From the NCBI GenBank assembly GCA_944388565.1, contig CALXJG010000001.1:20313-84312 (forward strand): a stretch of DNA of 64,000 nt. The letters are read 5' to 3'. The notes below the pieces were generated by a model. That model did no database searches and was not told the DNA's origin. It saw nothing but the letters and a program-made list of their open reading frames with translations. The position numbers were made by a program, and so were the translations under genes. Each line of letters starts with the position of its first letter. Position 1 is the first letter of the stretch. This DNA comes from an uncultured Clostridia bacterium (lineage in GTDB: Bacteria; Bacillota; Clostridia; TANB77; CAG-465). Positions 2,457-49,337 of this stretch are shown piece by piece.

Positions 2457-4199
2457 ATGAGTGCTAATATTATTAATTCACATAGATACAAAAAAACGAC
2501 TAGGAAAAAAGCAAATGAAAATAAAGAAAGAATAAAAGCAAATCAAAAGTATAAAAAAGAAAAATTAAAGAATTTAAAAGAAAAAAGAAAAAATGAAGTT
2601 AAAGATAGTTATATTAAATTAAATAATAATTTTAATAGTAATTATAATACTAATTTAAATAATAATACTAACAAAAATAAAAAGAAAACTAGAAAACATA
2701 ATTTTCCAGGTCTTTTAAAAATAATAGGGCTAGTAGCTTGTATAGCACTTATTGCTATTATATCTAGAATAATTGTTAAAAAGGAAAATGAACCAGTTGT
2801 TCAAGCTGATTTTAATACAGAAAAAAAAGTTTCTTTAGTTCAAGATTATAATTTTAAAATAGGAATGTCAAAACTTGACAGTACAAATTATTTAAATTCT
2901 AAAAATATAATTCTAAATGAACTTGTAAGCTCTTTAAGTAATAAGCTTATAAGTATTAATAAGGATTATTCTATCAACTATATAGTTGCAAAAAGTATAA
3001 AGAAAGTAAGTAATAAACAATATTTTATTGAGTTAAATCCTGATTATAATGTAAAAGTTGAAGATATAAAAAATACAATAAATGAAATTAAAAGCGTAGG
3101 AGACAAAAATATATATTATGAATGTATAAACAATATTTGGAGTATTGACGAGCAAGGTAAAAATGAGTTTAGTATTACTTTAAAACAAGATAATCCATAT
3201 TTTGTATATAATCTTACATTTCCTATAGTAAACACAGGAAATAATTATCCATATGATATAAAAAATGAAGGAGAAAGTAGTTTTTTATTTACAAGAAAAA
3301 AATCAAATTCTACTTTAAGTACTATAAGGTTTACTGGCTATAGTGATATAGATAATTTAATTGAAGATTTTAAAAATGGTAAGATTGATATGTTTACAGC
3401 ATCATCAGATAGTATAATGCAACTTATAGGTAAATACGAATATAATGTGAAAAAATATCGTGATGGTCAAAATATATTTTTACTTGGAAACAAAGATTCA
3501 AAAGTATTTTCTCAAAAAGAAGTAAGGCAAGCTTTACTTTATTCTTTAAATAGAGAAGAAATAGTAAAAAAAATAAATTCTACATTTTCTGAAGTGATTG
3601 ATATACCATATATATACAGTAGTATAAGATATAAATATGATATAGTTGGAGCCAAAAATATACTTATACAATATGGTTGGAAAAATGAAAAAGGAATGAA
3701 TAAAAAAACAGTTGGAGAAGAAGAATTAACTTTAGAATTAACACTACTTGTAAATGAAAAAGATAATACTAAAGTAAAAATTGCAGATATGATTAAAGAT
3801 ATGGCTGAAAATGTAGGAATAAGAATTAATATAAAAAAAGCAAAGGATGCTAAGCTTACAGAATTAATAAAAAATAAATCTTATGATATTATACTTGCGG
3901 ATGTATATGTAAATGATAAGCCAGATATAACTTACCTTGAGGAATATATAAATATAAACGATAAAGTAAATAGTGCTTTAAATATTGTAAAACAAAGTAG
4001 TATAGAAGATTTACCTAAAAATATTGCTACATTACAAGATGTAATTTCAGATGAAATTGCTTGTATTGGAATACTTGCAAGAAATACAAATGTTGTTTAT
4101 CAGAAAAACATTAATGGCTTTGAAGATATAAATTATATGAAAGTATTCTATAATTTAGAGAATATTGGAAAAATACAAGAGGTAAAAACTGATATATAA
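2457..4199 (+). CDS. membrane-anchored protein with lysine-rich cytoplasmic N-terminus, one TM (LLKIIGLVACIALIAII) and extracytoplasmic solute-binding-protein family 5-like domain
   Basis: ATG at 2457; TM segment then region with SBP_bac_5-like motif (KEVRQALLYSLNREEI); no adjacent permease genes. Confidence 0.45.
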   Translation: MSANIINSHRYKKTTRKKANENKERIKANQKYKKEKLKNLKEKRKNEVKDSYIKLNNNFNSNYNTNLNNNTNKNKKKTRKHNFPGLLKIIGLVACIALIAIISRIIVKKENEPVVQADFNTEKKVSLVQDYNFKIGMSKLDSTNYLNSKNIILNELVSSLSNKLISINKDYSINYIVAKSIKKVSNKQYFIELNPDYNVKVEDIKNTINEIKSVGDKNIYYECINNIWSIDEQGKNEFSITLKQDNPYFVYNLTFPIVNTGNNYPYDIKNEGESSFLFTRKKSNSTLSTIRFTGYSDIDNLIEDFKNGKIDMFTASSDSIMQLIGKYEYNVKKYRDGQNIFLLGNKDSKVFSQKEVRQALLYSLNREEIVKKINSTFSEVIDIPYIYSSIRYKYDIVGAKNILIQYGWKNEKGMNKKTVGEEELTLELTLLVNEKDNTKVKIADMIKDMAENVGIRINIKKAKDAKLTELIKNKSYDIILADVYVNDKPDITYLEEYININDKVNSALNIVKQSSIEDLPKNIATLQDVISDEIACIGILARNTNVVYQKNINGFEDINYMKVFYNLENIGKIQEVKTDI

Positions 4200-4216
4200 T
4201 GGGGGGGATTTTTTTA

Positions 4217-5224
4217 ATGTATGATGGAATTTTACAAACTATAGTTGAAATGGCAAAAAGCAAGAAAAGGAAAATTGTTTTGCCAGAAAGTAATGATAAA
4301 AGAATATTAGAAGCAGCAACTATTATTCAAGAAAACAATATTGCTGATATAGTATTAATAGGAAATAAAGAAGAAATTTTAGATAATATTGCTAAATTTA
4401 ATATTAATAATTTTAGTAACAATATTAGTATAATTGATCCAAATAATTATATTAAAAAAGAAGAATACATTAATACACTATATGAATTAAGAAAACAAAA
4501 AGGTATGACAATTAATCAAGCAACTGAACTTGTAAAAGATTATATATATTTTGCTACAATGATGATTAAATGTAATGATGCTGATGGAATGGTATGTGGT
4601 GCAGTTCATTCAACTTCTGATACATTAAGACCTGCACTTCAAATTATAAAATCAAAAGAAGGAATTGATACTGTATCTGCATTTTTCTTAATGGAAAGTA
4701 AACATAAAGAATTTGGGGAAAATGGAGTATTTATATTTGCTGATTGTGGTTTAAATCCTACACCAGATGTTACACAACTTTGTGACATTACAATAGAATC
4801 TGTAAATAGTTTTAGAAAGCTTGTAAACGCAAATCCAAAAGTTGCATTACTTTCATACTCTACTAAAGGTAGTGCAAAAGGAGAAAATATTGATAAAACT
4901 TTGGCAGTATTAAATAAATTACAAAGTATGAATATAGACTTTGATGTAGATGGTGAGCTACAACTTGATGCTGCAATAGTTGAAGAGGTTGCAAAATTAA
5001 AAGCACCTAATAGCAAAGTTGCAGGAAAAGCAAATATATTAATATTCCCAGATTTAGAAGCTGGAAATATAGGATATAAAATTGCTCAAAGATTTGGGGA
5101 TATGTTAGCACTTGGTCCAATAACACAAGGACTTAATAAACCAGTAAATGATTTATCAAGAGGATGTAATGTAGATGATATTGTAGGTGCAGTTGCAATT
5201 ACTTGTGTACAAGTAGAAGATTAG
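4217..5224 (+). CDS. pta: phosphate acetyltransferase
   Basis: MYDGILQTIVEMAKSKKRKIVLPESNDKRILEAA... typical Pta; GGGGGA RBS before ATG 4217; followed by ackA. Confidence 0.9.
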   Translation: MYDGILQTIVEMAKSKKRKIVLPESNDKRILEAATIIQENNIADIVLIGNKEEILDNIAKFNINNFSNNISIIDPNNYIKKEEYINTLYELRKQKGMTINQATELVKDYIYFATMMIKCNDADGMVCGAVHSTSDTLRPALQIIKSKEGIDTVSAFFLMESKHKEFGENGVFIFADCGLNPTPDVTQLCDITIESVNSFRKLVNANPKVALLSYSTKGSAKGENIDKTLAVLNKLQSMNIDFDVDGELQLDAAIVEEVAKLKAPNSKVAGKANILIFPDLEAGNIGYKIAQRFGDMLALGPITQGLNKPVNDLSRGCNVDDIVGAVAITCVQVED

Positions 5225-5278: not shown

Positions 5279-6493
5279 ATGAAGATTTTAGTAATTAATT
5301 GTGGTAGTTCAACAATTAAATTTCAATTCTTGGACATGGAAAAAGGACAAGTTATCGCAAAGGGAAGATGTGATAAAATAGGTTATGATAGTTCTAATTT
5401 AATATATAAAAATATGTTAAATGGTAAATCAATAGATGAAGTACCTGTAAAAATGGTAAATCATAAAGAAGGTATGAAAGCTCTACTTGATGCATTAATG
5501 GATAAAGAATTAGGTGTTATATCTTCTATAGATGAGATATATGCAATTGGTCATAGAGTAGTACATGGTGGAGAGTTATTTGTAAAACCAACTTTAGTTA
5601 CAAAAGAACTTTTAAGTGGCCTTGAAGATATAATTTCACTTGCTCCATTACATAATCCAGGAGCAATTATGGGTGTAGAAGCTATAATGGAAGTAGCACC
5701 AAATCTAAAAAATGTTGTAGTGTGTGATACAGCATTTCACCAAACAATACCAGACTTTAATTATTTATATGCTATTGATAAGAAATATTACGATAAATAT
5801 AGAATAAGAAAATATGGATTCCATGGAACATCTTATCAATATATTTTAGGAAGATTATCTGAAATACTAAATAAACCAAAAGATGAAATTAATGCAATTG
5901 TTTGCCATGCTGGTGGCGGTGCAAGTATATGTGCTATAAAAAATGGAAAATCATATGATACATCAATGGGCTTTACTCCACTTGAAGGTTTAGTAATGGA
6001 AACAAGATCTGGTGATATAGACCCTGCTTGTGTAACAAAAATAATGAAAGAAGAAAATCTTACTCCAGATGAAATGGATGATATATTAAATAAAAAATCT
6101 GGTAGACTTGGACTTTCTGGAATAGGCGATTTTAGATTAATGAAAGAAGCTGCAATAAATGGTAATGAAGATGCAATACTTGCAAGAAAAATACAAGCAA
6201 ATAGAACAAAGAAATATATAGGAGCATATATGGCAGAATTAAATCGCGTTGATGCCATAGTATTTACTGGTGGTGTTTGTGAAAATAATCCAGATGAAAG
6301 AGAAATGTCTGTAAGTGATATGGATTGTTTAGGTGTAATACTAGATAAGGATAGAAACAATTTAGTAACACCTGGTTCTGGAAAAGAAGGATTAATATCT
6401 TCTGATGATTCAAAGGTAAAGATATTTGTAATACCTACTGATGAAGAATTAGAAATTGCAAAGCAAACTATGGATGTGGTATCTAAATGTTAG
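5279..6493 (+). CDS. ackA: acetate kinase
   Basis: MKILVINCGSSTIKFQ..., HRVVHGG, GFHGTSY motifs of acetate/propionate kinase family. Confidence 0.95.
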   Translation: MKILVINCGSSTIKFQFLDMEKGQVIAKGRCDKIGYDSSNLIYKNMLNGKSIDEVPVKMVNHKEGMKALLDALMDKELGVISSIDEIYAIGHRVVHGGELFVKPTLVTKELLSGLEDIISLAPLHNPGAIMGVEAIMEVAPNLKNVVVCDTAFHQTIPDFNYLYAIDKKYYDKYRIRKYGFHGTSYQYILGRLSEILNKPKDEINAIVCHAGGGASICAIKNGKSYDTSMGFTPLEGLVMETRSGDIDPACVTKIMKEENLTPDEMDDILNKKSGRLGLSGIGDFRLMKEAAINGNEDAILARKIQANRTKKYIGAYMAELNRVDAIVFTGGVCENNPDEREMSVSDMDCLGVILDKDRNNLVTPGSGKEGLISSDDSKVKIFVIPTDEELEIAKQTMDVVSKC

Positions 6494-7710
6494 TAAGAGT
6501 ACAAGAACTATTAAAAAAATATAATAAAAAAGTATGGGTATTATATAATGATGATGGTTCTGATAAAATATTTTGTAGATATTTTTCAAATAATTTGAAT
6601 TCATCTACAATATGTTTTGTAACAGATACAAAAATATTTTTGTTAGTAAATGCTTTAGATGAACAAAACATTGAGTCATTTAAAAAGAATAATAAGGATA
6701 TAGTATCAATAATGTATAGTAGTAATAAAGAGTTAAGTGTTGCAGTAGAAGAAGTAATCGCAAAACTCAATTTCCCAAAAGATATAGCTTTATCATACTC
6801 TACTATGAATGATACTAATGTTGATATATTAACACATGGTGAATATGTATATTTAAGTAAACTTTTAAAGGCACCATATAAAAAATATGGAAAGAAAGTA
6901 TCTTTTTCTTCTGCAGAAAAAATAATATATGAAATTGCCTCAAGAAGAACAGATAAACAAATTAATAGATTAAAGATTTTAGCAGATATTACAGATGAAA
7001 TATTAGATACTACTTTTAAAGAGATTAAATGTGGTATGACTGAAAAAGAAATAGTTAGTTTAACTAATGAAGTTACTGATAAAATAATGAAAGACGTAAT
7101 TAATAACAGGAATCTGGGAATAATAGGGTTTAATATGGCTTGGGCAAACTGTCCTATAGTTTTAACAGGAGTAAATCTCGCAAAAGGTGGACATTCTTTG
7201 CCAAGTGATAAGAAACTTATTAAAGGTGATACAATATATTTTGACTTTGGAATAAAAGGTGTTTTTAGTGATCAAGAGGTATTATATACTGATATGCAAC
7301 GTATGGGCTATGCTTTAAAGAAAAATGAAACTAAAGCTCCTAAATCTGTACAAAAAGTTTTTGATACTTTAGTAAATTCAATTGAAGATGGAATTGATGA
7401 ATTAAAACCTGGTGTTAAGGCATATGTTATAGACAATGTAGTAAGACAAAAGATTTTAAAAGCTGGTTTCCCTGATTATATGCATGCAACTGGGCATCCG
7501 GTTGGTCTTAAAGTTCATGATATAGGTGCAATAATAAGCTTAAAAACTAGTAAAAGAGCAAATCTTGAAATTATAGAAAATTGTATTTATACATTAGAAC
7601 CAAGAGTAAATATAGCAAATGGTGGTTCAATTGAAGAAATGATACTTGCTACTAAATTTGGTGGAATTCCTTTATGTAAAAAACAAACAAAAATTTATTT
7701 AGTAAAGTAA
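6487..7710 (+). CDS. M24 family metallopeptidase (Xaa-Pro aminopeptidase/creatinase-like)
   Basis: C-terminal pita-bread motifs (HATGHPVGLKVHDIG), creatinase-like N-domain; start overlaps ackA stop by 7 nt. Confidence 0.65.
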   Translation: MLVRVQELLKKYNKKVWVLYNDDGSDKIFCRYFSNNLNSSTICFVTDTKIFLLVNALDEQNIESFKKNNKDIVSIMYSSNKELSVAVEEVIAKLNFPKDIALSYSTMNDTNVDILTHGEYVYLSKLLKAPYKKYGKKVSFSSAEKIIYEIASRRTDKQINRLKILADITDEILDTTFKEIKCGMTEKEIVSLTNEVTDKIMKDVINNRNLGIIGFNMAWANCPIVLTGVNLAKGGHSLPSDKKLIKGDTIYFDFGIKGVFSDQEVLYTDMQRMGYALKKNETKAPKSVQKVFDTLVNSIEDGIDELKPGVKAYVIDNVVRQKILKAGFPDYMHATGHPVGLKVHDIGAIISLKTSKRANLEIIENCIYTLEPRVNIANGGSIEEMILATKFGGIPLCKKQTKIYLVK

Positions 7711-10512: not shown

Positions 10513-12162
10513 ATGACTAATGTTATTAAGGTAAATTTTAAAGATGATTTGACACTTACTGTTAAAAAGGGAACGAAGGCAAAAGATGTAATTAAAAGAT
10601 TAAGCGGTGAGTACGTAAATATTATGGGAATAAGAGTAGACAATAAAGTCCATATGCTAAACTATTCATTTAGTAGAGATTGTAACTGTGAAATTGTTGA
10701 TTATTATAGTGCACAGGGACATAATATCTATGCAAGAAGTGTAAAGCTTTTGTTTATTGCTGCGATTAGAGAAGTTTTTCCAGACTTAAAATACGTTATT
10801 GAAAATAAGATTGGTGAACATTATTATATAAGCACAGAAAAAAAACTTACCAGTAGTCAAATAGCAAAAATTGAAGAAAAGATGAAAGAATTTGTCGATG
10901 CTAAATATAGCATTACAAAAGAAAGAGTTACATTTACTGAGTTAAAAGAAATATATACTAAAATTGGAAATGAAGAGGCTCTAGAAAATTTACGCAGTAG
11001 CCTTGAGGTGTTATTTAGTGTATATAACATAAACGATAAATATTACCCTTGGCTATACGGTAGAGTAGTTCACTCAACAGAAGTTATTACTAGTTTTGCA
11101 CTTGAAAGTTATAATGAAGGAATACTTTTAAAGCTTCCATATAGAGATGATATTAACTGCATTGAAAAAGAAGTACATGCAAATGCAGTACATCATACTT
11201 TTAAGCGGGAGATGCGACTTCCTGAAACTTTAGGTGTAAAAAGTATTCATGATCTTAACAAAAAAGCTTATGATGAAAAAGAGTTAGAAAGAATAATCTT
11301 AATGGCAGAAGAAAGACAGAATAAGCAGATATATAAAATTACAGACAATATATTATCTAGAGGTAATATACGTGTTATATTTATATCTGGACCTTCATCA
11401 TCTGGCAAAACAACATTTGCACAAAGACTACAAATAAGTCTTGAATGTGAAGGAATAAGTACAGTTCTTTTAAACATGGATGATTATTTTAAAAATGCAA
11501 GTATCTCAAAAGATTATGAGTCTTTTAATCATCTTGACTATGAATTCTTTAAAACTCAAGTAAATGAACTTTTTTTAGGTAAAACTATAAATCTTCCATT
11601 GTATAATTTTAAAAATAATGGAGGAACAAGGGAAGATAGCGGTAAAAAAGCAAGTCTTCCATCAAACGGCATATTACTTGTAGAAGGAATTCATGGATTA
11701 AATCCAAAGATTTCTGATTTTATTCCAAAAGAAAATGTTTTCAAGGTGTATATAGCTCCCCTTGTAACATTAAGTTTTGATAGTTATACTAAAATTTCTT
11801 CAAATAATGTAAGATTGTTAAGAAGAATTGTAAGAGACTATCAAGATAGAAAAGTAAAACTTTTGGATACACTTACTAGATGGAATAGTGTTATACATGC
11901 TGAAAAAGAAAATATATTTAAGTATGTAGATGAAGCTGATGTGATATTTAACAGTATGCTAATCTATGAAATAGGTGTATTAAAAGTTTTTGCAGAACCA
12001 ATTTTTAGGGACTCAATAGATGCTGCAAATCCAAATGAACATTTTTCTACAATACGTGAAATGTGTTCAATGCTTTCTTCTTTTGAGCCAATACACACAG
12101 ATAAAATTCCAAATAATTCTATACTTAAAGAATTTGTTGGAAGCGGTTGTTTTAAACGTTAA
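10513..12162 (+). CDS. fusion protein: ThrRS-like N-terminal TGS domain + uridine kinase/phosphoribulokinase-family P-loop NTPase
   Basis: N-terminus resembles ThrRS TGS (VIKVNFKDDLTLTVKKGTKAKDV); Walker A ISGPSSSGKTTFAQ and uridine-kinase-like core. Confidence 0.55.
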   Translation: MTNVIKVNFKDDLTLTVKKGTKAKDVIKRLSGEYVNIMGIRVDNKVHMLNYSFSRDCNCEIVDYYSAQGHNIYARSVKLLFIAAIREVFPDLKYVIENKIGEHYYISTEKKLTSSQIAKIEEKMKEFVDAKYSITKERVTFTELKEIYTKIGNEEALENLRSSLEVLFSVYNINDKYYPWLYGRVVHSTEVITSFALESYNEGILLKLPYRDDINCIEKEVHANAVHHTFKREMRLPETLGVKSIHDLNKKAYDEKELERIILMAEERQNKQIYKITDNILSRGNIRVIFISGPSSSGKTTFAQRLQISLECEGISTVLLNMDDYFKNASISKDYESFNHLDYEFFKTQVNELFLGKTINLPLYNFKNNGGTREDSGKKASLPSNGILLVEGIHGLNPKISDFIPKENVFKVYIAPLVTLSFDSYTKISSNNVRLLRRIVRDYQDRKVKLLDTLTRWNSVIHAEKENIFKYVDEADVIFNSMLIYEIGVLKVFAEPIFRDSIDAANPNEHFSTIREMCSMLSSFEPIHTDKIPNNSILKEFVGSGCFKR

Positions 12163-44128: not shown

Positions 44129-45160
44129 ATGGGAAGATATGAAGATATTATAAAAGATATAAATATATTACTTGCTGATGATGATGAAGATTATATGATG
44201 ATGACTTATTCCTTTTTAAAGCAATTAGGATATAATGTAGATAAAGCTTATGATGGTAAAACAGCTTTAGAAATGTTACAAACAAATAAATATCAAATAA
44301 CTTTATTAGACTATTTTATGCCAGAATTAAATGGTGAAGAAGTTATAAATAAAATAAGAGAGACTAATAAAGAGATAATTATAATATTGCAGACTGGATT
44401 TTCTGGACAAAAGCCACCAATTGAAACAATGAAAAAACTAAATATTCAAAATTATCATGATAAAACAGAAGGTATTGATAGATTAAATTTAGAGCTTATA
44501 TCTGCTGTTAAAATATTTAATCAACAAAGTGAAATAGAATTAACTAAATATAAAACAAGAGCAATTGGTGAACTTATATTTGGAGTTGCACAGGAAATAA
44601 AGTCAAATCTTCTTTCTGTTGGTGCAAGTCTTGAATATACAAATATGTTAATACAACAAAAAAATGAGACTTTTAGCAAAGACCATTTAGAAAAATTAAA
44701 TAAATATTATACTGGAAATAAAGAATCATTACAAAGGGTTGATAAGGTTTTATCTTCAATAATAAATCAGTCTACTGAAAATACTGATTATATTATGGAT
44801 GATAAAGATGTTATGGATATAATATCGCTAGTATTAAAAAATCAATCAAGAACTAGTGGAATAAATTTAAATACTAAAATTTCTTTAAAAGCTGCAAGTT
44901 ATATAAAAGGTGGAATAAATGATGCAATATTTATAATCTGCGAGATTATAAAAGAATTGATGGAGTTAGAAGAAAAAGGAAAAAGTATTGATTTAGTATT
45001 AACTGAAGATGAAAGTTTTTGGTATTTTAATATAAGCAGTGATAAGGTAAATAGTTTACCACCTTCACAATATTATATATTAAATAAGGTAGTAATATCT
45101 ATGCCTGGAACTAATATATATAAAGATGAAAATAAAATAGTTTTATCAATAAATAAATAA
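44129..45160 (+). CDS. response-regulator receiver domain protein with uncharacterised C-terminal domain
   Basis: ILLADDDEDYMMMTYSFLKQLGYNV...LLDYFMPELNG REC motifs. Confidence 0.65.
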   Translation: MGRYEDIIKDINILLADDDEDYMMMTYSFLKQLGYNVDKAYDGKTALEMLQTNKYQITLLDYFMPELNGEEVINKIRETNKEIIIILQTGFSGQKPPIETMKKLNIQNYHDKTEGIDRLNLELISAVKIFNQQSEIELTKYKTRAIGELIFGVAQEIKSNLLSVGASLEYTNMLIQQKNETFSKDHLEKLNKYYTGNKESLQRVDKVLSSIINQSTENTDYIMDDKDVMDIISLVLKNQSRTSGINLNTKISLKAASYIKGGINDAIFIICEIIKELMELEEKGKSIDLVLTEDESFWYFNISSDKVNSLPPSQYYILNKVVISMPGTNIYKDENKIVLSINK

Positions 45161-45277: not shown

Positions 45278-45426
45278 TAGTTCTTTATTAAAAAATGAAA
45301 AAATAGAAGAGGTAAAAATTGTAAAAAAAGAAAAATATATAGAGAAGCTAGTTTAAAATAGAAATATTTTAAGCTGGCTTTTTGTACGTAAAAAACCATA
45401 ATGAACCAAAAGAAGGAGGAAAAAAA

Positions 45427-46287
45427 GTGAAAGAAAAGAAAGGAATAAGTCTAATAACATTAGTAATAACAATAATAGTAATAATAATCCTTGCAGCAGC
45501 AGTAATATTAACATTAAATAACAATAACCCAATAGAAAATGCAAAAGAAGCAACATTTAAATCAGATGTAAAAACATTACAATCAGAATTAACAATGTAT
45601 ATAGCAAAACAAACAGCAGATACATTAGGAGGATTTAAAGCAGAAGAATTAAACTTAAGTGAAACAACAACCCCAAAGATAGAAGAAATATTAACAAGTA
45701 TAAAAAGTAGTGGATTAGAAGGTAAAGTAGAAGTACAAAATGGAAAGTTAGTATATACAGGAACAATAGAAAAAGAAGAAAAATGGTTTAAAGAGATAAT
45801 GGGAGAAAGTGTAGTGACACCACCAGAAGAGGAAGATAAAATACCAATAGATAAAGAAACAGAAAAAATAGGATATTATGCAGATGTAGATGGAAATGGA
45901 ACCGTAGATGGAGTAATATATGCAGATTTAGCTTTTTCTAAAAGTGGGCAATGGACTAATGCAAATGGAGCATATTCTTACACAGCAAAAACAAATACAA
46001 AAGATTATTATATAAGTCAAACAAATTATAAAGGAGATTTTGGAACAAAAGATGTATTAACAGCAATAGATGGAGATGGAGAAGATAGATTTTATGTAAT
46101 GGCATTAAAATCATTTAATGATGGAAATGGATTAGAGTATTTTTGGTATGAAGATGCACATGGAAATATGAGTGATTATGCAACAGCGACTTCGATAGAC
46201 TTTGGAACTGGAAGAAGAAATACAGAGACAATGGTGAAAAAGTGGAATAATAGCGCATATGGTGCGCAAAATGCTGGTAAACGGTGA
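45427..46287 (+). CDS. pilin/pseudopilin-like protein with non-canonical class-III-like signal (MKEKKG/ISLITLVITIIVIIILAAAVI) and C-terminal DUF1566; reading frame broken (+1) near 46259-46287, continues 46259-46558
   Basis: GTG 45427 after AAGGAGG; hydrophobic N-terminal helix; frame-2 ORF 46259-46558 encodes GWFVPSRGEWGAF...YWSSSQYS...YVRLS DUF1566 signature. Confidence 0.55.
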   Translation: MKEKKGISLITLVITIIVIIILAAAVILTLNNNNPIENAKEATFKSDVKTLQSELTMYIAKQTADTLGGFKAEELNLSETTTPKIEEILTSIKSSGLEGKVEVQNGKLVYTGTIEKEEKWFKEIMGESVVTPPEEEDKIPIDKETEKIGYYADVDGNGTVDGVIYADLAFSKSGQWTNANGAYSYTAKTNTKDYYISQTNYKGDFGTKDVLTAIDGDGEDRFYVMALKSFNDGNGLEYFWYEDAHGNMSDYATATSIDFGTGRRNTETMVKKWNNSAYGAQNAGKR

Positions 46288-46558
46288 TATATATGACGCC
46301 TTAGATGTGTGGGGAGTAATCCAAAATAAAGTAGCAGAAGGTTGGTTTGTTCCATCAAGAGGTGAATGGGGAGCATTTGGAGATAATTTAAGAATAACAG
46401 AAAATAATTCATTACCCGGACTTACTTACAACTATTGGTCATCGTCTCAATATTCTGATGCTCTTGTGTGGTACATGAGGTCTAGTACTAGGGAGATGAG
46501 ATACTACGCAATAGGTACTAACGGCACATTTTATGTGCGTTTAAGTACAACTTTCTAA
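46259..46558 (+). pseudogene. DUF1566 C-terminal segment, out of frame (+1) relative to upstream pilin-like ORF
   Basis: DUF1566 hallmark W-VPS--EW.....YWSS.......W.........YVR..; lacks own RBS and N-terminal part of domain. Confidence 0.5.
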
Positions 46559-46582: not shown

Positions 46583-46612
46583 GAGTTAAAGTTTTTCTTT
46601 AACTCTTTTTTC
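46583..46612 (+). terminator. rho-independent terminator; also the likely target hairpin of the downstream group II intron
   Basis: gagttaaag-ttttt-ctttaactc + TTTTTT. Confidence 0.7.
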
Positions 46613-46613
46613 T

Positions 46614-48478
46614 GTATGATGGGCATGTCATAAATCTAGGGTGAAAGTCCCAAGAGACGTATTTGTCGCGAACTCAATAGCAACTTGCAAAGCATAAACC
46701 AGTAATGGAGTGTGAAAAGAAGCAATAGCGAAATCGTGGCTCTATGAATAAGAACTTGATATTAAGGCTTATTAGACGGATAAGTTGCCAGAATACAACG
46801 AAGTCCAAAAGACAAACGTAAATCTAATGAGTAAATCAAGAGAGTAAACGAGGAAAGAGTTATGGCTTATCCCATGAGGTCCTATAAACGAATCAGTAGT
46901 AACAACGAATTATAGGAAGTCAGCAGAGGTCATAGTAGGAACTATTATCCGAAGGACCGAACAATTTATAAGACTATGAAAATCTTGAAATCTCTTGCAA
47001 TTAATCAGAATAAATAAAGATGATAGGTTTAAGCGTATCTTAAATGGGTAATCCAAAAGATGGTATTGCAAGATAACGAAAAGAAAGGAAGTAGACAAGC
47101 TATGAAAGAAGATATTATTACAAAAATACTTGACCGAAACAATTTAAATGAGGCCTATAAAAATGTTAAAGCAAATAAAGGAGCAAGTGGAATTGACGAT
47201 TTATCAATTGAGGAAACAGCAGAATACATAAGACAAAATAAGGCTACCATTGTATGGCAATTGTATAATCGTAAATATCAACCACAGCCAGTGCGTAGAG
47301 TAGAAATACCAAAACCAAATGGTGGAATAAGGAAATTGGGTATACCAATAGTGCTAGACAGAATTATCCAGCAAGCAATGGTGCAAGTATTAGCTCCAAT
47401 GTTTGAACCATATTTTAGTGAATACAGTTATGGATTTAGACCAAAAAGAAGTTGTCAACAAGCTATAATTAAAGCACTAGAATACATGAACGACGGGTAT
47501 GAATGGATAGTAGACATTGACCTAGAGAAATTCTTTGATAATGTGCCACACGACAGATTATTAAGACTAGTAAGTGATGTAGTAAAAGATGGAAATGTAG
47601 TTTCATTGGTAAATAAATTTCTTAAAGCAGGAGTAATGATAAAAGGTAATTATGAAGAGACTACAATAGGAACACCACAAGGAGGACCTTTATCACCATT
47701 ACTATCAAATATTATGCTTAATTTACTAGATAAGGAATTAGAGGCAAGAAATTTACATTTTACAAGATATGCAGACGATACAATAATTTTAGTTAAAAGT
47801 GAAAAGGCAGCAAATAGAATAATGACATCAATAACAAAATTTATTGAAAATAAACTAAAACTAAAAGTTAATATAACAAAAACAAAAGTATGCACACCTT
47901 GGAATTTAAAATATCTAGGTTTTGGATTTTGCAAAATGAAGAAATGGGAATGTATACCCCATAAAGAAAGTAAAAAGAAATTTCAAAGAGCATTAAAACG
48001 ACTAACAAATAGAAGTAAAAATATGTCACTAGACAGAAGAATAGAACAATTAAATTGGACTATTAGAGGTTGGGTAAATTATTTTAGGATTGGAAAAATG
48101 AAGAAATTTCTAGAACGCACAGATGAACACTTACGTGCAAGAATTAGAGTAATTATTTGGAAACAGTGGAAAACACCAAAGACCCAAATAAAGAACCTAG
48201 TCAAATGTGGACTTTCACTAAATAATGCTAGAGGATTAGCCTATTGTAGAAGAGGATATACATTTGTAGCACATTCACAAATTTTGCAAACGGCTATTTC
48301 GAAAGAAAGACTACAAAAACCAAATAATAATCTAAAACGCAGAGGATTAGTCCTTGCTTTAGATTACTATCTAGCTTGAAATAAACTTATAAATTGAACC
48401 GCCCATTGCCGAACGGCACGATGTGGTGGTGTGAGAGGGGATGAAAATTTTATTTAATAAAATTTTCTACTCTACTCG
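46614..48478 (+). mobile_element. group II intron (bacterial class C-like, endonuclease-less IEP); boundaries approximate
   Basis: begins right after terminator T-run with gtatgatgggcatgtcataaatctAGGGTGaAAGTCccAAG (cf. Ll.LtrB 5' GTGCGCCCAGATAGGGTGTTAAGTCAAG); RT/maturase ORF in domain IV; candidate domain V 48399-48429 with CGC triad; perfect 11-bp hairpin 48443-48467. Confidence 0.75.
47102..48379 (+). CDS. group II intron reverse transcriptase/maturase (IEP), no HNH endonuclease domain
   Basis: RT motifs (GIDDLSIEE, PKPNGGIRKLGIP, FRPKRS, IVDIDLEKFFDN, GTPQGGPLSPLLSNI, YADD), domain X (RGWVNYFRIGKM); alternative ATG at 47060. Confidence 0.85.
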   Translation: MKEDIITKILDRNNLNEAYKNVKANKGASGIDDLSIEETAEYIRQNKATIVWQLYNRKYQPQPVRRVEIPKPNGGIRKLGIPIVLDRIIQQAMVQVLAPMFEPYFSEYSYGFRPKRSCQQAIIKALEYMNDGYEWIVDIDLEKFFDNVPHDRLLRLVSDVVKDGNVVSLVNKFLKAGVMIKGNYEETTIGTPQGGPLSPLLSNIMLNLLDKELEARNLHFTRYADDTIILVKSEKAANRIMTSITKFIENKLKLKVNITKTKVCTPWNLKYLGFGFCKMKKWECIPHKESKKKFQRALKRLTNRSKNMSLDRRIEQLNWTIRGWVNYFRIGKMKKFLERTDEHLRARIRVIIWKQWKTPKTQIKNLVKCGLSLNNARGLAYCRRGYTFVAHSQILQTAISKERLQKPNNNLKRRGLVLALDYYLA

Positions 48479-48539
48479 ATTAATAGTTGAAAAAAATTAT
48501 TACATACTATATAATAAAATATATAGATGTGGTGAGATT

Positions 48540-49337
48540 ATGGAAAAAATTGCAATTATTTCGGATGTACATGGTAATATTACAGCATTAAAAGCTGTTT
48601 TTGATGATATAGAAAAAAGAAATATTAAAAGAGTATTTTGTTTAGGTGATATTACTGCTAAATTGCCTAATTCTGATCTTGTAATAGATATGATAAAAGA
48701 AAAATGTGAAGTAGTACTAAAAGGCAATTGTGATGAAATTATTTCATCACCAGAAATAAAAAAAGGAAGATTTTGGACTAGGGATAGAATTGGTGAAAAA
48801 AGAGCTGAATACTTATATAATTTACCAGTTATGTATGAATTTTATTTGAGTGGTCATCTAATAAGACTTTTTCATTCATCACCATTTAGCTTGTCACATA
48901 TTTTTAATCCAATGTTTAAAAATATAAATACTAAGTATAAAGATATACAAATTTCAAGCCCAGATAAGTTATTCGAAAATACAGAGTTTATAGGTAAAAC
49001 TAGTGATGATAAAATACCAGATATGATTGGGTATGGTCATTTACATACGCCAAATATTTTTAGATGGAAAAATAAAACAATTTTTAATCCTGGAAGTGTT
49101 GGTGCGCCTACTGAGATGTTAAATGATTATGAAGTAGATGAAACATCTAAATTTTCTACAATGGCTTCATATATTATATTGGAGGGAGAATATGATTCAA
49201 AAAGTTTAAGTGGAATTTCAATTAATTTAGTAAGAGTTCCATACGACATAGAAAAAGAGATAGAAAATTTAAGAAAATCAGATATGCCAGGTAAGGAAGA
49301 TTCAATACAAATGTTACGTTCTGCTTGGCCTTATTAG
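48540..49337 (+). CDS. metallophosphoesterase (calcineurin-like phosphoesterase family)
   Basis: MEKIAIISDVHGN, GDI, GNCD, GHLH motifs; GGTGAG RBS before ATG 48540. Confidence 0.7.
   Translation: MEKIAIISDVHGNITALKAVFDDIEKRNIKRVFCLGDITAKLPNSDLVIDMIKEKCEVVLKGNCDEIISSPEIKKGRFWTRDRIGEKRAEYLYNLPVMYEFYLSGHLIRLFHSSPFSLSHIFNPMFKNINTKYKDIQISSPDKLFENTEFIGKTSDDKIPDMIGYGHLHTPNIFRWKNKTIFNPGSVGAPTEMLNDYEVDETSKFSTMASYIILEGEYDSKSLSGISINLVRVPYDIEKEIENLRKSDMPGKEDSIQMLRSAWPY

Follow-up and report, generated by a model that had tools for sequence, protein, structure and literature searches.

Class C (IIC) introns are a known and thoroughly characterised class of bacterial group II introns, and B.h.I1 of Bacillus halodurans is the type example of those inserted after transcription terminators. 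Hallmarks of the class are a CGC triad in domain V in place of AGC and a domain V distal stem 2 bp shorter than in IIA or IIB introns; B.h.I1 insertions lie 3-11 nt after a hairpin, and the IIC ε' region forms an 11-nt bulge with a conserved AGGAA (Toor et al. 2006, PMC1702495). The Eubacterium rectale (E.r.) IIC intron has been solved together with its maturase, MarathonRT (7uim/7uin; Chung et al. 2022, PMC10190682), with exon-binding site 1 (EBS1) at A184-G187 and with A231 paired to dT36. Here, we examined a 64-kb stretch of DNA from an uncultured Clostridia bacterium (GCA_944388565.1, contig CALXJG010000001.1, positions 20,313 to 84,312), hereafter the window, whose own numbering is used throughout. 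Positions 46614-48480 on the + strand (1867 nt) constitute, at a probability of roughly 0.95, a complete IIC intron retroelement. Ribozyme domains I-VI and an intact reverse transcriptase (RT)/maturase gene without an endonuclease domain make up the element (Table 1). It is a further member of a described class rather than a novel kind of element, and nothing in the analysis alters current understanding.

Like B.h.I1 (Toor 2006, PMC1702495; Robart 2007), the intron is inserted a few nucleotides past an intrinsic terminator hairpin and outside coding sequence, carries CGC in a domain V with the 2-bp-shorter distal stem, uses a 3-4 bp pairing between EBS1 and intron-binding site 1 (IBS1), and encodes a protein without an endonuclease. 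It differs from B.h.I1, which was compared by description and not by sequence, in having AAGAA for AGGAA and a 5' end of GUAUG. The E.r. intron offers the closest structural counterpart among solved relatives. Its protein has the same architecture and aligns over nearly the full length (E 2.6e-143); its EBS1 is likewise a 4-mer in the domain Id terminal loop, preceded by C (δ); an A of the coordination loop, ~40-45 nt downstream of EBS1, likewise serves as its EBS3; and its target again combines a stem-loop in DNA with a spacer, a 4-nt IBS1, and T at +1. The two proteins are ~60% identical, as estimated by eye from the printed alignment, and EBS1 is AGAA in this intron versus AAAG in E.r. More distant is the GsI-IIC RT of Geobacillus stearothermophilus (6ar1), compared at the protein level only, which has the same domain order (E 2.5e-107). 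Ll.LtrB, a IIA intron from Lactococcus lactis, shares the general six-domain layout, the presence of an RT/maturase, and AGGGUG..AAGUC..AAG close to its 5' end, but it codes for an endonuclease domain, carries AGC as its triad, uses EBS2/IBS2, and resides inside a relaxase gene; its protein, LtrA, matches only at E 1.9e-46. A first-pass annotation, made by a model from the letters of the window, had recognized the Ll.LtrB-type motif and described its spacing as that of Ll.LtrB. The motif is present, but the spacing is not the same: in an Ll.LtrB sequence 100% identical to Lactococcus plasmids, AGGGUG-UU-AAGUC-AAG occupies nt 13-28, whereas AGGGUG-A-AAGUC-CC-AAG occupies nt 25-41 of this intron, an offset of 12 nt with different internal spacing.

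Comparison with intron-free loci, suggested by the first-pass annotation as a check, fixed both ends of the intron. A pattern search for the joined flanks returned two metagenome contigs lacking it, L082 and L083 (L numbers denote fetched loci), in which the empty site reads ...CTCTTTTTTCT|TAATAGTTG..., with the 3' exon starting TAATAG, or in longer context ...GTTAAAGTTTTTCTTTAACTCTTTTTTCT|TAATAGTTGAAAAAAATT... Because these sites join the flanks precisely there, the intron was delimited to the 1867 nt given above. In copies with 82-95% DNA identity (85-90% for the protein), similarity to the window ends at 46614 and 48480/48481, and the flanks differ in each case. A 1-nt ambiguity of the ends (T46613 or T48480) was resolved by the variable base that precedes GUAUG in other copies. 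A 5' end placed 2 nt upstream, as read in L004 (GUGUAUG) and L007 (GAGUAUG), was considered and rejected, since the two bases concerned vary freely from copy to copy and the junction is set by the empty site. The interval originally proposed, 46583-48478, placed all features to within 2 nt, but it takes in the target hairpin and ends 2 nt before position 48480. The intron is missing from L082, although identity to the window there is 96.6% on the upstream side of the site and 99.2% over 6.2 kb downstream; the insertion is therefore recent and polymorphic. The intron appears to have been mobile recently and probably retains the ability to splice. As it lies outside any coding sequence, it is presumably an essentially selfish element with a small effect on its host.

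The 5' half of the ribozyme was recognized by two Rfam families: group-II-D1D4-3 (RF02001) at 46696-46866 with 100.4 bits (E 2.7e-19), and group-II-D1D4-1 (RF01998), whose match at 46889-46957 scores 44 bits (cut-off, 35). We derived a consensus for domains I-III with RNAalifold from an alignment of 18 related 5' segments, and 48 of its 65 pairs show compensatory changes. An abbreviated domain I without EBS2/IBS2 is a further trait of class C. Domain I measures 257 nt here and in the consensus has a single Id arm ending in the EBS1 hairpin; RNAalifold left ~50 nt unassigned, and a lack of EBS2 in this intron is accordingly tentative. A local 5' hairpin, UAUGAU/GUCAUA (46615-46632), was rejected because the consensus pairs these bases long-range as the basal stems of domain I, with compensatory changes. 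At the ε' position, more distant relatives read CUGAAGGAAG (AGGAA) and the intron's own clade reads UGAAAAGAAG; AAGAA is a one-base variant of AGGAA common to this clade. The non-coding blocks on either side of the RT gene had been described as GC-richer than the genome, and their composition agrees: 36.1% GC for 46614-47101 (488 nt) and 36.6% for 48380-48480 (101 nt), compared with 27.3% for the window. Only ~1% of 488-nt segments outside the intron reach the GC content of the 5' block.

Downstream of the gene, 48396-48480 folds as two hairpins in the minimum free energy (MFE) structure (-31.7 kcal/mol, z -5.5), and this segment is recognizable in more than 40 related loci. The domain V triad, C48400-G48401-C48402, is invariant as CGC across 18 relatives, and the wobble pair G48401.U48427 occurs in all 18 sequences. 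Canonical pairing in domain V is kept at 94.9% of positions, with compensatory changes in 6 of 13 pairs (18 distinct sequences), whereas shifting the partners by 1-3 columns left only 28-50% of positions paired. A custom covariance model built from the relatives scored 57.1 bits (E 1.8e-15) at 48396-48435, its sole match in the window. The first-pass annotation had located this hairpin exactly, including CGC and the wobble-paired G; its 4-bp distal stem with a CG bulge was shifted by one register, and homology instead gives a distal stem of 3 bp, a GAAC loop, and A48418-C48419 as the two-base bulge. In domain VI, the candidate branch site A48474 is bulged 7 nt before the 3' end of the intron (position -7). 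The sequence GAGAGG...CCU[A]CUCGAU is conserved in all relatives, and the distal stem varies in sequence yet still pairs. This distal part is an 11-bp AT-rich extension; domain VI is ~15-20 nt longer in the intron's clade than is usual.

Rfam RF00029, which models domains V and VI, had been named in advance as a check whose failure would count against an intron, and it did not detect the element. This is a sensitivity failure rather than an absence of domains V and VI, because relatives with a short domain VI score merely 41-47 bits against a cut-off of 40 (that is, 1-7 bits over), and the custom model exposes the miss as a false negative. RF00029 also fails on L004, L010, and L012. The family thus represents a systematic annotation blind spot, and pipelines that require it under-call introns of this clade. 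Domain V, the most conserved element of group II introns, here further contains an extra unpaired U (U48424) in the 3' strand of the basal helix, flanked on one side by the metal-binding AC bulge and on the other by the bases that pair with the CGC triad. The same U is present in L002-L006, L008, L012, and L073, so that with this intron three lineages carry it, while most relatives do not; the four pairs above it show compensatory changes. Its placement by MAFFT, which produced apparent mismatches in three pairs, was rejected, as bulging U48424 in accordance with the MFE fold restores all three. One speculative interpretation, which we consider rather doubtful, is that U48424 and the long domain VI mark an undescribed domain V variant in which the extra U is tolerated or required for catalysis. 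If true, this would explain why standard models such as RF00029 miss these abundant gut-metagenome introns.

The open reading frame (ORF) in domain IV is uninterrupted, and its product contains YADD along with RT, X/thumb, and DNA-binding regions. Pfam returned RVT_1 (E 2.8e-43) and GIIM (E 1.2e-18), and neither HNH nor any other nuclease was matched even at E<=1, in keeping with the initial description of a full RT lacking an HNH or endonuclease domain. NCBIfam TIGR04416 (group II intron reverse transcriptase/maturase) matched at 427 bits (cut-off, 300). Weak secondary matches to retron and defence-associated RT (DRT) models all stayed far under the respective cut-offs. Among solved structures, the best relative is the E.r. 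maturase 7uim_D, residues 6-421 of which (427 aa in total) align with residues 5-424 of this protein. The GsI-IIC RT ranks second, followed by the IIC RT fragments 5hhl and 5hhj, and only then by LtrA (IIA) and the IIB T.el4h maturase (E 1.1e-39). This ranking and the missing HNH support a predicted grouping with the class C maturases. Clustering at 90% identity places the protein in a group of 914, and the 40 of these that were read are all without a name; relatives in the plasmid collection are only 64-67% identical and annotated ltrA, with no close named copy. As a fairly close relative of MarathonRT, the protein belongs to a family that could yield processive reverse transcriptases.

Insertion just after an intrinsic terminator, another claim of the initial reading, was borne out by the local sequence. 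The hairpin, GAGTTAAAG-TTTTT-CTTTAACTC, has a 9-bp stem (12 bp if G.T pairs are allowed) and a 5-nt loop, and it folds as single-stranded DNA at -7.2 kcal/mol (z -2.4). It is also found at the empty sites of L082 and L083. The end of the stem is separated from the insertion point by 8 nt, the T-rich TTTTTTCT, a distance within the 3-11 nt known from B.h.I1, and the intron has the same orientation as the upstream gene. Related copies whose upstream flanks were read and tabulated have a hairpin there, usually with a T-run after it, that stops a few bases short of the intron. The target here is a T-run terminator hairpin between two ordinary genes, not the integron attC site that defines the IIC-attC subclass, and no integron features were seen among the neighbouring genes.

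Exon recognition was assessed across 41 independent insertions from the fetched loci by comparing the same loop positions with the last four upstream bases. EBS1 and IBS1 pair at 156 of 164 positions (144 Watson-Crick and 12 G.U). Other loop registers gave 71-106 paired positions and shuffled sites 108 +/- 4.4, and 0 of 5000 shuffles reached 156. For EBS3 and IBS3, which in class C pair as they do in IIB introns, 26 copies were tabulated: 23 have A with T at +1, two have compensatory changes that keep the pair (L019, GUAUAU with +1 A; L021, GUAGAU with +1 C), and L023 is mismatched. On this basis, AGAA is EBS1, at the position of E.r. A184-G187, and A46834 is EBS3, analogous to E.r. A231. The filled sites, the empty sites, and the 41-site table provide a clean documentation of the IIC target rule.

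The EBS1 loop itself is variable. In copies 82-95% identical to the intron (L002, L004, L005, L007, and L053, compared with window 46788-46795), it differs at 2-4 positions, the variants being CCAGAAUA, CCAAAACA, ACACAACA, ACUAAACA, and ACUCAACA, and each mostly matches its own 5' exon. Relative to the rest of the ribozyme, the loop therefore evolves at a much higher rate.

Table 1. Features of the IIC intron and its flanks, in window coordinates.
Feature	Position	Strand	Basis
Target stem-loop, the intrinsic terminator hairpin of the upstream gene	46583-46605	+	Terminator scan, fold, empty sites
T-rich tail TTTTTTCT between stem and insertion point	46606-46613	+	Sequence read
IBS1, UUCU, last 4 nt of the 5' exon	46610-46613	+	4/4 pairing with EBS1
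Whole group IIC intron, 5' GUAUGA ... CUCGAU 3'	46614-48480	+	Empty sites, homology limits
Domain I, closing stem AUGGG/CCCAU	46619-46875	+	RF02001 match, RNAalifold consensus
AAGAA at the ε' bulge position	46717-46721	+	Alignment with relatives
EBS1, AGAA, positions 3-6 of the 8-nt loop CCAGAAUA in the domain Id hairpin 46784-46799	46790-46793	+	Pairing statistics
EBS3, A, middle A of conserved GUAAAU in the Id coordination loop	46834	+	Pairs with T48481
Domain II	46876-46921	+	Consensus fold with compensatory pairs
Domain III (plus J2/3 under the RF01998 match)	46928-46958	+	RF01998, consensus fold
Intron-encoded RT/maturase, domain IV, 425 aa	47102-48379	+	Pfam, TIGR04416, alignment to 7uim_D
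Domain V hairpin	48399-48429	+	Custom covariance model, covariation in 18 relatives, MFE fold
Domain VI, bulged A48474	48432-48478	+	MFE fold, conservation in relatives
IBS3, T, first 3'-exon nucleotide	48481	+	Empty-site comparison
Promoter-like site, TTGAAA-17-TATAAT (11/12 matches), for the downstream metallophosphoesterase gene	48487-48515	+	Consensus scan only
Metallophosphoesterase gene	48540-49337		Pfam Metallophos_2

Several observations weigh against a complete and mobile IIC intron. RF00029 gives no match at the intron, even at E<=10; domain V contains an unpaired U that most relatives lack; and the ε' motif is AAGAA where the canonical form is AGGAA. We found no promoter for the intron, the expression of which would hinge on read-through of its own upstream terminator, and the hairpin of that terminator is AT-rich, its stability exceeding that of shuffled sequence only modestly. 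Splicing and mobility are also inferred from sequence. An alternative is that the intron belongs to class C by descent but is now a dead copy, unable to splice or move owing, for example, to the extra domain V nucleotide, AAGAA, or missense changes in the protein. The departure of domain V from the majority form, the RF00029 miss, and the existence of decayed relatives, such as L053 with its ORF DNA in three separated pieces, would all fit such an explanation. We nevertheless judge it improbable: the ORF is unbroken, retains YADD, and aligns nearly end to end with an active IIC maturase; all conserved ribozyme elements are present; and EBS1 fits its own site at 4 of 4 positions. The retention of the extra U in three lineages with compensatory changes around it indicates selection, and the polymorphic insertion, with L082 empty between near-identical flanks, argues for recent arrival.

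A complete IIC intron also accounts for the evidence better than assignment to another class (IIA or IIB, or intron-encoded protein class ML, CL, D, E, or F) with a chance location behind a terminator. The Rfam D1-D4 families are not class-specific, and the 5' end GUAUG departs from the textbook GUGYG; the aligned relatives, however, start GUGCG, GUGUG, or GUUUG, with GUUCG and GUACG also seen. IIC maturases score ~60-100 orders of magnitude above those of IIA and IIB introns, the CGC triad with its invariant wobble accompanies a domain V distal stem 2 bp shorter, EBS1 is 4 nt long with a hairpin used in exon recognition, and domains I-III together amount to merely ~345 nt. With insertion after a terminator here and alike in the 41 related insertions, the class C assignment made at the outset stands, and another class is very improbable. 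The third alternative, that no intron is present and the RT gene stands alone between ordinary untranslated regions as a retron, DRT, or group II-like RT gene, could draw on the weak retron and DRT matches, but these lie far below threshold where TIGR04416 passes. The flanking RNA matches group II ribozyme models with covariation, the 1867-nt unit is present or absent as a precise block, and the ribozyme evidence already refutes this alternative, to which we attach a negligible chance. For annotation, the 1.9-kb block should accordingly be called a mobile IIC intron rather than a stand-alone "reverse transcriptase" gene whose untranslated regions are long.

The IIC literature (Toor 2006, Robart 2007, Chung 2022) suggests how such an intron would operate. 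Transcripts reading through the terminator would carry the intron, which the maturase would bind, promoting splicing and yielding an RNA-protein particle. Splicing would proceed via A48474 of domain VI as the branch point or via hydrolysis, and the ligated exons would read ...UUUUUUCU joined to UAAUAG... The particle would then recognize single-stranded DNA in which a terminator-like stem-loop precedes a 4-nt IBS1 and a 1-nt IBS3, both read by base pairing, and reverse-splice into that strand. The protein would copy the intron RNA into DNA; because it lacks an endonuclease, the nascent strand at a replication fork is the proposed primer. GC skew of the + strand ranges from +0.14 to +0.30 along the whole window (1-64000), all of which seems to belong to a single replichore, + being the leading strand. 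Given this positive skew, the intron sense strand would correspond to leading-strand sequence, that is, to the lagging-strand template. The lagging-strand template is what would be expected for introns without an endonuclease, as inferred from PMC4424553.

On its downstream side, the intron is followed after 7 nt by the promoter-like site, such that the insertion replaced whatever adjoined the -35 element upstream. The gene on the other side, previously called pilin-like, comprises two overlapping ORFs in different frames (45382-46287 and 46259-46558, +), neither of which has a Pfam match, so that description found no backing. Intron-free L082 has the same split (6426-7292 and 7264-7563); the split therefore predates the intron, and it reflects a genuine arrangement of two ORFs or else a frameshift or pseudogene common to both. 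In L083 the split gene is missing altogether (11785-11830), and the response-regulator gene (window 44129-45160) leads directly to that terminator. The region is a variable cassette. Rfam detected no tRNA, rRNA, or riboswitch at gathering thresholds in the window.

Other loci illustrate different fates of related introns. The close relative in L053 (2501-3726) is 94.7% identical in its 5' part, with window 47318-47424 and 47874-48118 having no aligned counterpart, and is a decayed copy behind its own terminator. L044, from a Chloroflexia metagenome-assembled genome (MAG), contains tandem IIC introns at 2465-4345 and from 4347 onward. The second starts with GUGCG at 4347, two bases past the 3' end (CCCGAU) of the first, and its EBS1, CAAU, matches AUUG; it apparently used the domain VI hairpin of the first intron as its target stem-loop. 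In a single Aggregatilineales MAG (L032-L043 and L080; contigs CBDCER010000002/3), one IIC intron is present at least 13 times, with almost every copy behind a different hairpin. EBS1 is ACGA in every copy, and IBS1 is UUGU, UCGU, UUAU, or CCGU, a retrotransposition burst that tolerates G.U pairs and single mismatches.

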